Notes under the pieces: model-generated
Database searches by the model: none
Told to the model about the DNA's origin: nothing
Seen by the model: only the letters and a program-made list of their open reading frames with translations
Shown here: positions 60,052 through 64,000 of the stretch, piece by piece
Layout of the letters: every line of letters starts with the position of its first letter
Position numbering within the stretch: position 1 is the first letter of the stretch
Virus record (IMG/VR): IMGVR_UViG_3300027896_000001
Location: 1 to 64,000 of that record
Origin: a virus
Reading direction: 5' to 3' (one strand)
Length of the DNA: 64,000 nt
Position numbers and translations under genes: made by a program

Positions 60052-60528
60052 TCAGTTGCCTTTGACGACTTGGCTGCAAATGACGCGTACTTTGCCACTC
60101 GACGGCCTTTGCAGAACGTAATCGATTTTTACAGGCTCGTTAACGCCGGCAATCCTGAATTCGAAAGCAGGATCGCCGTTGGCCCGGAAAAACGATGAAC
60201 GGTCAGCGTCGGGAAGCTGATCAAGAGTTTGTTTGATGGTATACCCGTCCATGGCGGGGAGGGTTATCCCCCTCCCTCCGCCAAGACGGAGAATTTCGAC
60301 CTCGAACGGGTCCAGGTTGCCCTTGACCATTTTGGAGATATAGATCACATCGCCATCGTACAAGGTCGTGTCAAGGTAAACGCGTTCCTGCCGGCGAGTT
60401 ACCTCGCCTTCGACGAATTCCCGTTCAGCCTGTTCGAAGAGTTTTTCCACCGTCGAATTCGGTTCGAGGGCGAAACTTTGAATCTCCGTATTCAGCTGAA
60501 CAATTTTTACTACGATATGATTTGGCAT
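60052..60528 (-). CDS. Tandem ubiquitin-like (beta-grasp) protein
   Basis: Domain 1 VKIV...STVEKLF...LYDGDVIYISKMVKGN (ThiS/MoaD-like LxDGDxI); domain 2 ends VICSQVVKGN. Confidence 0.8.
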   Translation of the reverse strand: MPNHIVVKIVQLNTEIQSFALEPNSTVEKLFEQAEREFVEGEVTRRQERVYLDTTLYDGDVIYISKMVKGNLDPFEVEILRLGGGRGITLPAMDGYTIKQTLDQLPDADRSSFFRANGDPAFEFRIAGVNEPVKIDYVLQRPSSGKVRVICSQVVKGN

Positions 60529-61348: not shown

Positions 61349-62230
61349 TCAGAACTCCTCGTACCGTTCCATCATTCGTTTTACTTCTGCTTCCGTGGCT
61401 TCCGGGTGCAAGCCACGGTACATTTCATCTTCTTCATCCATCGCTCCTCCATTAAATTGTGGAGGTGTAGCTCCCGGAAACACCTTCGGAAGAGGAGCGC
61501 GATAATCATCACGATGATAAACAAATGGAGCCGTGTAACTTGTCGGCTCAGGAGGTATATTAATTTTTTTAAGTTCTTCGATTTTTTCTTTTATTTTTTC
61601 AGATTCCGGATCAGCTGTGCATGCTTCCATGATTTTTGCAAGTTTCAATCCATGGGCAAGGTTTGAATCCAGAACTCCTTTAATTTCTGTAAGCTTTTGT
61701 GTTAATAATGTTTCGTTGTCGAATTCCTCGGCAGACCAAACAATATTGTCAAATCTTATTTGTTTTGCATAGTCAAAGAATGAAACCGACATTAATCCGT
61801 CATTGTTAACGATAACCCTGATAACATCGGCTTTTGTCGAAGACATTCTTTCCAATGCTTGTGTATCGTCTTGACCTGAAGCGAACACTCCCATTGAATG
61901 ATGGGAATGTCCCCATAACATCATTTTACTTATATCTTCTTCGCGGCCATGTGAAAGAAGCCATTCTATTAATTTCGCTTCTCCCTCAGAGGATATCTCA
62001 CACGTAGCGGCTGACGCTAATTGGTGTTTGGGATAGAAAATATCTCTGACAAAATAAGAATATTCCGCAACCTTGTCGACAACCCCATAAAACCCAATTT
62101 CATGGGCATGTAAATCGACAAGGTTTTCAATCCATTTCAGGGAAAGCCGTGAGAAAACGATCGTCGGGGGAGTCTTTCTCTCAGGCTTTAAAATTATATA
62201 TGTTGGTGCTGTTTGCGTGTTCTTCATCAT
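61349..62230 (-). CDS. JAB/MPN+ metallopeptidase (deubiquitinase-like)
   Basis: EIGFYG plus WGHSHHSMGVFASGQD = E...HxH-x7-S-x2-D. Confidence 0.88.
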   Translation of the reverse strand: MMKNTQTAPTYIILKPERKTPPTIVFSRLSLKWIENLVDLHAHEIGFYGVVDKVAEYSYFVRDIFYPKHQLASAATCEISSEGEAKLIEWLLSHGREEDISKMMLWGHSHHSMGVFASGQDDTQALERMSSTKADVIRVIVNNDGLMSVSFFDYAKQIRFDNIVWSAEEFDNETLLTQKLTEIKGVLDSNLAHGLKLAKIMEACTADPESEKIKEKIEELKKINIPPEPTSYTAPFVYHRDDYRAPLPKVFPGATPPQFNGGAMDEEDEMYRGLHPEATEAEVKRMMERYEEF

Positions 62231-63469: not shown

Positions 63470-63988
63470 TTAAATGGTCACTCTCACCGGCAGCGCATCT
63501 GCCAGCAAATCATCAAACTTCTTTTCTGTTTCTTTTTTCTTTTCGTAAATTAAAAACTCTTCATGATCTTCGCCCAAAGCTACGGATTCAGGGACTTCGG
63601 GCCATGTATTGACATGTTGTCCGGCCCCATCAGACGTGTTTGCCGTCTGAAGGAATATGAGAATTTGATAAACCAAATCAAATAGATTTCTTTGTCTGTA
63701 TGCTTCAACCATGCCTGTTGCAAGGTTGCCATGACAAGCGTGCCCGTCTTCAAATACATGGGGCGCGTGAAATCCTGTATTCATTCCCATACCGCCGGTA
63801 AATTTTGTATTGAAAATTCGCACAGTGTTATTCGTGTTATAGGAAAAATCAAGCATACCAATGGTGATATGAAAAGTTCCAATATCGTGCCATTTTTTGC
63901 TTCTTTCATCCTTCACGTATAAATTTTTCGTATATACATGAACGGTTCCTTCACGAATATAAATTGCTGAAACTTTATTAATAGCCAT
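63470..63988 (-). CDS. E2 (UBC)-like protein, probably 5'-truncated by the window edge
   Basis: FHAPHVFEDGHACHGN resembles the HPN/H...G.IC E2 active site; frame is open to 64000. Confidence 0.65.
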   Translation of the reverse strand: MAINKVSAIYIREGTVHVYTKNLYVKDERSKKWHDIGTFHITIGMLDFSYNTNNTVRIFNTKFTGGMGMNTGFHAPHVFEDGHACHGNLATGMVEAYRQRNLFDLVYQILIFLQTANTSDGAGQHVNTWPEVPESVALGEDHEEFLIYEKKKETEKKFDDLLADALPVRVTI

Positions 63989-64000
63989 AGTGTCATTATA

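Follow-up and report, generated by a model that had tools for sequence, protein, structure and literature searches.

A phage operon with E1, E2-like and JAB genes encodes a protein of two different ubiquitin-like units, each ending in Lys-Gly-Asn

The operon and its two-unit ubiquitin-like protein

The window analysed here is a stretch of 64,000 nucleotides, positions 1 to 64,000 of the 174,649-bp virus genome IMGVR_UViG_3300027896_000001 from IMG/VR. At its far end lies a minus-strand operon that encodes, in this order, a 761-aa E2-like protein, a 408-aa E2-like protein, a JAB/JAMM metallopeptidase, an E1-like enzyme, a protein with two ubiquitin-like (Ubl) units and a 111-aa protein (Table 1). 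The Ubl gene is the last enzyme-linked member of the operon, which converges on the gene for a conserved 704-residue protein; this protein has no match in PHROGs.

Table 1 Features of the ubiquitin-like operon within the window
Feature	Coordinates	Strand	Basis and remarks
Two-unit ubiquitin-like gene (candidate precursor)	60052..60528	(-)	158 aa; stop codon 60052-60054; ORF translation
Unit 1, residues 1-71, the common ~70-residue family unit	60316..60528	(-)	Unit HMM match (235 units); JAB-contacted in the co-fold
Internal tail K69-G70-N71 in the inter-domain coil; candidate internal processing site	60316..60324	(-)	Homologues, AF2 model, co-fold
Unit 2, residues 72-158, diverged longer beta-grasp unit	60055..60315	(-)	AF2 model; hhalign against the unit-1 profile
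C-terminal tail K156-G157-N158, Asn as last residue	60055..60063	(-)	Invariant in 29 homologues
E1-like adenylating enzyme, ThiF family, 260 aa	60565..61347	(-)	Pfam ThiF E 4.9e-21; S-x-C-G cysteine loop
JAB/JAMM metallopeptidase, 293 aa, candidate processing enzyme	61349..62230	(-)	JAMM motif
Shorter E2-like protein, 408 aa	62227..63453	(-)	E2-like domain at the C-terminus, preceded by an N-terminal part and a linker of Pro-rich repeats
C-terminal E2-like domain of the longer E2-like protein	63470..64000	(-)	Whole-genome ORF; AF2 model
Small downstream gene, 111 aa	59624..59959	(-)	Positional conservation in several related phages

The E1-like protein, encoded directly beside the Ubl, has its ThiF domain at residues 12-211 and a cysteine that is invariant in the E1 alignment. 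It scores below every NCBIfam equivalog cut-off, and its best solved relatives by sequence, PaaA, ThiF and MccB, are all weak (E 1e-5 to 4e-4). The JAB protein has no Pfam match and its motif aligns weakly to Rpn11 (E 0.2); the zinc-site motif E...HxH-x7-S-xx-D is intact, with E44, H108, H110, S118 and D121 invariant in 10 orthologues.

The E2-like domains share an invariant cysteine within an H..H...G..C.G motif, as seen in the family collected with an iterated E2-domain HMM. An AF2 model of the domain from the longer protein (pLDDT 87.7) has E2/UBC or RWD folds for almost all of its top structural matches, at weak scores (Foldseek E ≥ 0.075; for UbcH10, VIA-align Z 7.0 and rmsd 3.0 with 109 residues aligned). 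Motif and fold matches together tentatively suggest an E2-like assignment. The gene of the longer protein reaches position 65755 of the genome, beyond the window end, and the 172-residue ORF within the window represents only its C-terminal E2-like domain; full orthologues have 643-769 residues. In the shorter protein, a linker at about residues 120-145 with three 8-residue Pro-rich repeats (THPVPPQR, TDPVPLQR and THPVPPPG) separates the N-terminal part from the coiled-coil and E2-like part.

Searches of Pfam, PHROGs, PADLOC and NCBIfam returned nothing usable for the Ubl, the JAB or the E2-like proteins. A PHROGs match of the Ubl to a major head protein (E 0.005) was short and was taken as chance. 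The 111-aa gene found no match in the family libraries; orthologues with 27-33% identity lie directly after the Ubl gene in L004-L009, and its product is a possible partner or target of the system.

The translation confirms the feature that drew attention to the Ubl gene, namely that its two domains end alike, in SKMVKGN at residues 65-71 and SQVVKGN at residues 152-158, with Asn as the final residue. The accompanying statement that the protein has no Gly-Gly holds for the domain ends only; elsewhere, a nearly invariant GGG occupies residues 83-85, which the alignment and the AF2 model identify as the beta1-beta2 hairpin turn of domain 2. The tail reads K-G-N, in which Gly is present and Asn stands in place of the last Gly of the usual Gly-Gly end. 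The domains were also described as divergent, and indeed the local alignment score of the two halves was reached by 93 of 1000 shuffles. Profile-profile comparison identifies the two units as homologous (hhalign probability 95%, E 3.9e-8), with their KGN ends aligned. KGN occurs 16 times among the 54,827 ORF residues of the genome, so that by composition the chance of a C-terminal KGN together with a KGN in the 7-residue linker window is ~6e-7.

The AF2 model of the Ubl, computed with 29 homologues as input (pLDDT 88.3), shows two beta-grasp domains, with linear di-ubiquitin, ISG15 and FAT10 at the top of the Foldseek list (E 7e-7 to 1e-4). A coil at residues 65-74 joins the domains and contains the internal KGN, from which only about 3 residues lead to strand 1 of unit 2; the units are joined directly head to tail. 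The fold, together with operon neighbours that comprise a ThiF-type E1, a JAMM peptidase with an intact motif and two E2-like proteins, agrees with the two-unit Ubl precursor of the original prediction; its exact cut between Gly and Asn fared less well, as discussed below.

KGN ends in homologues, family members and operons

By its own terms, the original prediction would have been refuted had the internal KGN lacked conservation in homologues, and it withstands this test. Among 29 close homologues (51-71% identity), KGN is invariant at both sites and accounts for 6 of the 18 invariant columns. It is also invariant at both sites in 19 distant two-unit relatives (27-48% identity), in which the two KGN motifs and one Gly are the sole invariant columns. 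In near-identical repeats, persistence of an internal motif could stem from recent duplication, an explanation that does not apply to the diverged units here. Since the internal KGN is invariant although these units have diverged, the motif is under selection of its own.

A profile search of 1.8 billion representatives extended the family to at least 214 relatives, in which the number of tandem units, each of ~70 residues, is one, two, three or four. Almost all of these units close with KGN, at 189 internal and 107 terminal positions; the minor end types are KGG (7 internal and 9 terminal positions), KGA, KGS, RGN, KAN and KSN. The sequence that follows the last KGN is not conserved. Among the 29 homologues, nine have no residue there, 11 have 1-2 and nine have 4-33, and in the wider family the count is zero in 29 proteins, one in 51 and up to 28 in others. 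An extra domain of at least 100 residues follows the last KGN in ~15 cluster representatives. Where residues or domains lie beyond the last KGN, freeing the tail end needs cutting.

In these ~15 representatives, which come from P0110, P0116, P0123, P0126, P0128-P0142, P0155 and P0176, two KGN units are followed by a region of ~100-230 residues, often helical. The layout of such proteins resembles that of ubiquitin-extension-protein fusions.

Operons with E2-like, JAB, E1 and Ubl genes recur in phage contigs, with at least 143 IMG/VR loci found by E1 alignment. We retrieved 80 of the 143 E1-found loci and called their genes with profiles of our own: a JAB gene is present in every one, an E2-like gene in most and a Ubl gene in many. 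Single-unit genes are the commonest Ubl form in these operons, so one unit suffices as a modifier. At the other extreme, L001 carries a four-unit Ubl beside one E2-like, one JAB and one E1 gene; its phage-like contig also encodes a DnaB-type helicase and a primase. Loci with unit 1 and unit 2 comprise ~12 distinct sequences of one clade and share their gene order: long E2-like, short E2-like, JAB, E1, Ubl and the convergent gene for the 704-residue protein.

It had been suggested that the two units might serve one E2 each. Every locus with unit 1 and unit 2 does carry two E2-like genes, within that one clade, and two other operons with two E2-like genes, L019 and L057, also encode two divergent units. 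Against such a pairing, a single E2-like gene stands beside the four-unit gene of L001 and beside the two-unit genes of L018 and L061. The comparative case for one Ubl per E2 is thin and comes largely from one clade.

Unit 2 is fused behind unit 1 in all operon-context loci. Of three genes that resembled split unit-2 genes (P0079, P0095 and P0069), P0079 is a genuine stand-alone unit 2 (L096:250-585), the other two being candidates. Its product begins M-K-G-N. The contig that carries the gene is short and rearranged, and no frame upstream encodes a unit 1; the gene may have arisen by a deletion that spared the junction motif.

The constant fusion of the units would fit a protein that is never cut internally but acts as one two-domain modifier, attached by its C-terminal tail only, in the style of ISG15, FAT10 or Type I BilA. 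The internal KGN would then be a docking site for the JAB, E1 or E2, or would serve linker geometry. Two-domain Ubls that are attached whole are well known, ISG15 and Type I BilA are not cut internally, and bacterial Ubl2 and Ubl3 proteins have been presented as intact (PMC11601603). Several observations speak against this explanation, which is the main rival to a cleaved precursor and which we consider unlikely. The internal KGN is invariant between units that are barely alike, a single unit is a sufficient modifier, and unit 2 also occurs on its own, behind an MKGN leader. Moreover, the N-terminal domains of uncut di-Ubls such as ISG15 are not known to retain the conjugation tail.

Predicted JAB docking, position of the cut and the activated residue

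When JAB residues 1-190 were co-folded with the whole Ubl, both supplied as alignments, the pair scored 0.71, and the best of three controls scored 0.00. This mark is reached by 58 of 80 solved complexes and by 2 of 110 mismatched pairs, counts that are only rough here because our own alignments were used as co-fold input. The runs share at least 91% of their contacts, with a partner pLDDT of at least 84. On the Ubl, the confident interface consists of residues 10-16, 37-47, 61, 63-71 and 74, that is, of unit 1 and the internal tail. On the JAB, it includes residues 44, 108, 110 and 118-121, and residues 63-71 of the Ubl are placed against E44, H108, H110, S118 and D121. The modelled active site is occupied by the internal tail and not by the C-terminal one, a further point against a modifier that stays whole. 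Structures of JAMM-ubiquitin complexes have been solved, so the co-fold may pass partly through likeness to them or memory of them. It supports binding of unit 1 by the JAB, not cleavage.

The predicted docking, combined with selection on the internal motif in diverged units, makes a precursor that is cut at both tails the best reading. We therefore propose, with a probability of roughly 0.6, that the protein is a polyubiquitin-style precursor of two different units. Standing beside its own E1, two E2-like proteins and a candidate trimming peptidase, the gene looks like the viral counterpart of a polyubiquitin gene.

The fold, the conservation of motif and operon, the intact catalytic motifs and the predicted docking of the JAB on unit 1, all from sequence comparison and models, are the ground on which we infer cleavage and its position, activation, transfer and targets, by the following proposed route. 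The JAB, encoded two genes upstream, would bind each unit, thread its tail through the active site and cut both tails. This would free unit 1 from unit 2 and, in relatives, would also strip the C-terminal extensions. The ThiF-type E1 would adenylate the freed C-termini, and the units would be handed on, by way of its conserved cysteine, to the two E2-like proteins, whose long N-terminal parts probably pick the targets; these could be phage or host proteins.

The precursor model leaves a choice of scissile bond. In the original prediction, the tail was a masked single glycine, and the JAB would cut between Gly and Asn at both sites. On this view, Asn would be a removable cap and conserved P1' residue, and the single Gly would be activated. 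It is one form of the precursor model, set apart by the scissile bond alone, and the family alignment does not favour it. KGN and KGG units have equal length from the DGD motif to the end and align without gaps, residue for residue, so that Asn occupies the position taken by the final Gly in KGG and in ubiquitin RGG (Gly76). If the product ended in Gly, its tail would fall one residue short of the tails of the GG-type relatives. Conservation stops after Asn. The next residue at internal junctions is Ala, Ser, Gln, Leu, Val, Thr or others, and in C-terminal tails it is likewise variable, while a mere cap is without conservation in ubiquitin or BilA precursors. The variants KSN and KAN lose the Gly and retain the Asn. 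Finally, KG is the final end of only 1 in ~137 terminal units, although a gene with such an end needs no processing.

Other evidence points to a cut between Gly and Asn. A C-terminal Gly is used by every characterised beta-grasp Ubl that we know of. Asn directly follows GG in some GG-type relatives (P0143, P0156 and L084), one relative ends K-G-stop, and the tail contacts in the co-fold extend through residue 71, which is compatible with either register. The nearest experimental precedent is BilC, which cuts Type II BilA at G97|A98, before a single extra residue (10.1101/2023.09.26.559546). In the K-G-stop case (L095:267-1166), a two-unit relative, the stop codon, TGA, is followed immediately by an ORF in the same frame (164 aa, weak PepSY match). 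Either the protein is a rare form that ends in Gly, or the stop is recoded or read through, which would give a Ubl-Ubl-X fusion. Judged on the alignment, the end of conservation and the KSN and KAN variants, a cut after Asn is at least as likely as one before it, and we see the two positions as nearly balanced, with a slight tilt towards a cut after Asn. As a complete reading, cutting at Gly-Asn with activation of the single Gly seems to us rather improbable.

The same three observations, Asn in the place of the last Gly, conservation that ends with it and variants that keep it, suggest that activation may take place at Asn itself. Natural variants of the tail are KSN, KAN, KGA and KGS, and no residues other than Asn, Gly, Ala and Ser occur at its last position. 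A precedent exists in MccB, an E1-like enzyme whose adenylation target is a C-terminal Asn, for which Ala, Gly, Ser or Thr can stand in (PMC11118369), a set that resembles the residues found at the last position of this family. If Asn rather than Gly were the C-terminal residue activated by the E1, the phages would use the first E1-E2 cascade that acts on an Asn-terminated beta-grasp modifier, and would make such modifiers as hetero- or homopolymeric precursors. We regard this as a tentative possibility, short of an even chance; by analogy with MccB, activation could run through a succinimide intermediate.

The E1 sequences offer a suggestive correlation. At Asn-type loci, their motifs are E-[TP]-R-M and C-G-x-S, and at Gly-type loci D-[GS]-R-M-G and C-[TS]-A-[RK], the latter known from four loci only that may form one clade. 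Co-variation of E1 motifs with the Ubl end type is thus confounded by clade, and L049 is an exception to it. The solved relatives of the E1 were also considered as a guide to its chemistry and set aside: PaaA, ThiF and MccB have similar scores, with matches limited to the nucleotide-binding part, so that they leave Gly versus Asn undecided.

The likeness to MccB also allows a reading without protein conjugation, in which an MccB-like E1 would act on the C-terminal Asn to give a succinimide or nucleotide adduct, or the Ubl would be a sulphur carrier like ThiS or MoaD, and the E2-like proteins would have another role. PaaA, ThiF and MccB are indeed the best solved relatives of the E1, and MccB works on a C-terminal Asn via a succinimide. 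Those matches cover the nucleotide-binding part only and do not separate the families, and the candidate substrate in this operon is a beta-grasp protein. MccB instead acts on a heptapeptide; the MccB/MccA microcin C pathway yields a peptide-nucleotide antibiotic and has neither E2 nor JAB. In the present operons, the JAB is always there and an E2-like protein with an invariant cysteine is found in most loci. We saw no sulphur-transfer or export genes adjoining the operon. Nor did we find the features typical of MccB, an N-terminal peptide-clamp domain and a short peptide substrate that ends in Asn: the E1 has 260 residues, of which only residues 12-97 match MccB. Taken together, a function outside protein conjugation is very improbable.

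Comparison with known systems and distant phage loci

The processed precursor that we favour most closely recalls the polyubiquitin genes (UBB, UBC and yeast UBI4). These likewise encode ubiquitin-fold units head to tail, each with a conjugation tail, need a dedicated peptidase to free the units, as is predicted here, and have a short extra C-terminal piece, as do many members of this family. Yeast UBI4 even ends with an extra Asn. Polyubiquitin consists of identical copies with R-G-G ends, whereas the phage protein has two different units with K-G-N ends. Its candidate peptidase is a JAMM metalloenzyme of the same operon, the system is phage-borne, and cleavage is here a prediction.

Among bacterial systems, BilABCD (Hor 2024; Chambers 2024) also has separate Ubl, E2, JAB and E1 genes. 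Type I BilA has two ubiquitin-like domains, and in Type II the residues that follow a conserved Gly of BilA are removed by BilC, a JAB peptidase (10.1101/2023.09.26.559546). In contrast, the phage E1 is minimal, a ThiF domain of 260 residues, conservation in the Ubl ends with Asn, which recurs at the end of the first domain, and the operon is phage-encoded, beside structural genes, whereas BilABCD is a host-borne defence. PADLOC (2023), whose library may predate Bil models, gave no match to the Ubl, the JAB or the E2-like proteins and its only match for the E1 was to CBASS E1-E2 models, over their generic nucleotide-binding region.

In bacteria, Ubls made up of two or three beta-grasp domains have been described without a report of internal processing, and those of Type II Bil and Bub are intact, filament-forming multi-domain units (PMC11601603). 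In the phage family, by contrast, each unit has its own invariant tail and the unit number varies from 1 to 4. Tandem Ub-like repeats in bacterial E1/E2/JAB operons were likened to polyubiquitin by Iyer, Burroughs and Aravind (2006).

The PRTRC cassettes, or class 6d, carry the same four components on mobile elements as separate genes, namely a small beta-grasp protein with a C-terminal Gly, an E2-like protein, a JAB and an E1 (Iyer et al. 2006). PRTRC models are among the nearest NCBIfam models for our E1 and JAB. No component of the operon reaches a curated family cut-off, and for PRTRC both proteins score well below it (TIGR03735-03738; E1 35.9 against 144.75 bits, JAB 12.4 against 101.8), and the Ubl has no match to these models. 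The PRTRC Ubl ends in Gly, compared with K-G-N here.

Tandem bacterial Ub-like repeats, JAB maturation in Bil and multi-domain bacterial Ubls are thus already known. What is new is the ownership by phages, precursors of one to four units in which each unit has its own tail, and a tail that ends in Asn; within the literature library searched in full text, there was no paper on phage-encoded poly-Ubl genes of the KGN type. Work on ubiquitin-type tagging in prokaryotes has until now treated it as an anti-phage defence of bacteria, and here a phage owns the full kit, including a modifier gene that follows the logic of eukaryotic polyubiquitin, with one to four tailed units, but with the tail Lys-Gly-Asn. 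If the units are released and attached, phages own a tagging system, with virion parts or host defence proteins as possible targets. If Asn is activated, the C-terminal-Gly rule for beta-grasp modifiers has an exception, and ubiquitin-type E1s would be linked to the Asn-activating chemistry of MccB.

Among GenBank phages, tblastn gave no match to the Ubl or to its four-unit relative. Distant relatives of the E1 occur in crAss001 and in phages of Flavobacterium, as well as in jumbo phages of Xanthomonas and Erwinia. The Bacteroides phage crAss001 carries a distant version of the locus (L094, gp76-gp78), in which the unit profile recognised no KGN-type Ubl. Its gp77, a 'metalloprotease', matches the JAB profile (4.8e-15), the ThiF protein gp76 has a 160-residue N-terminal extension, and the upstream gp78 has an H.HV...C.G-like pattern.

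Paired genes or systems were seen in a further group of phage contigs (L047:4434-4974, L023, L028, L056 and L060). Some of these carry two adjacent single-unit Ubl genes with the unusual ends KSAS and KSAA. Others have two full E2/JAB/E1/Ubl systems a few kb apart, which differ in tail type, KSN being paired with QGA or EGA.
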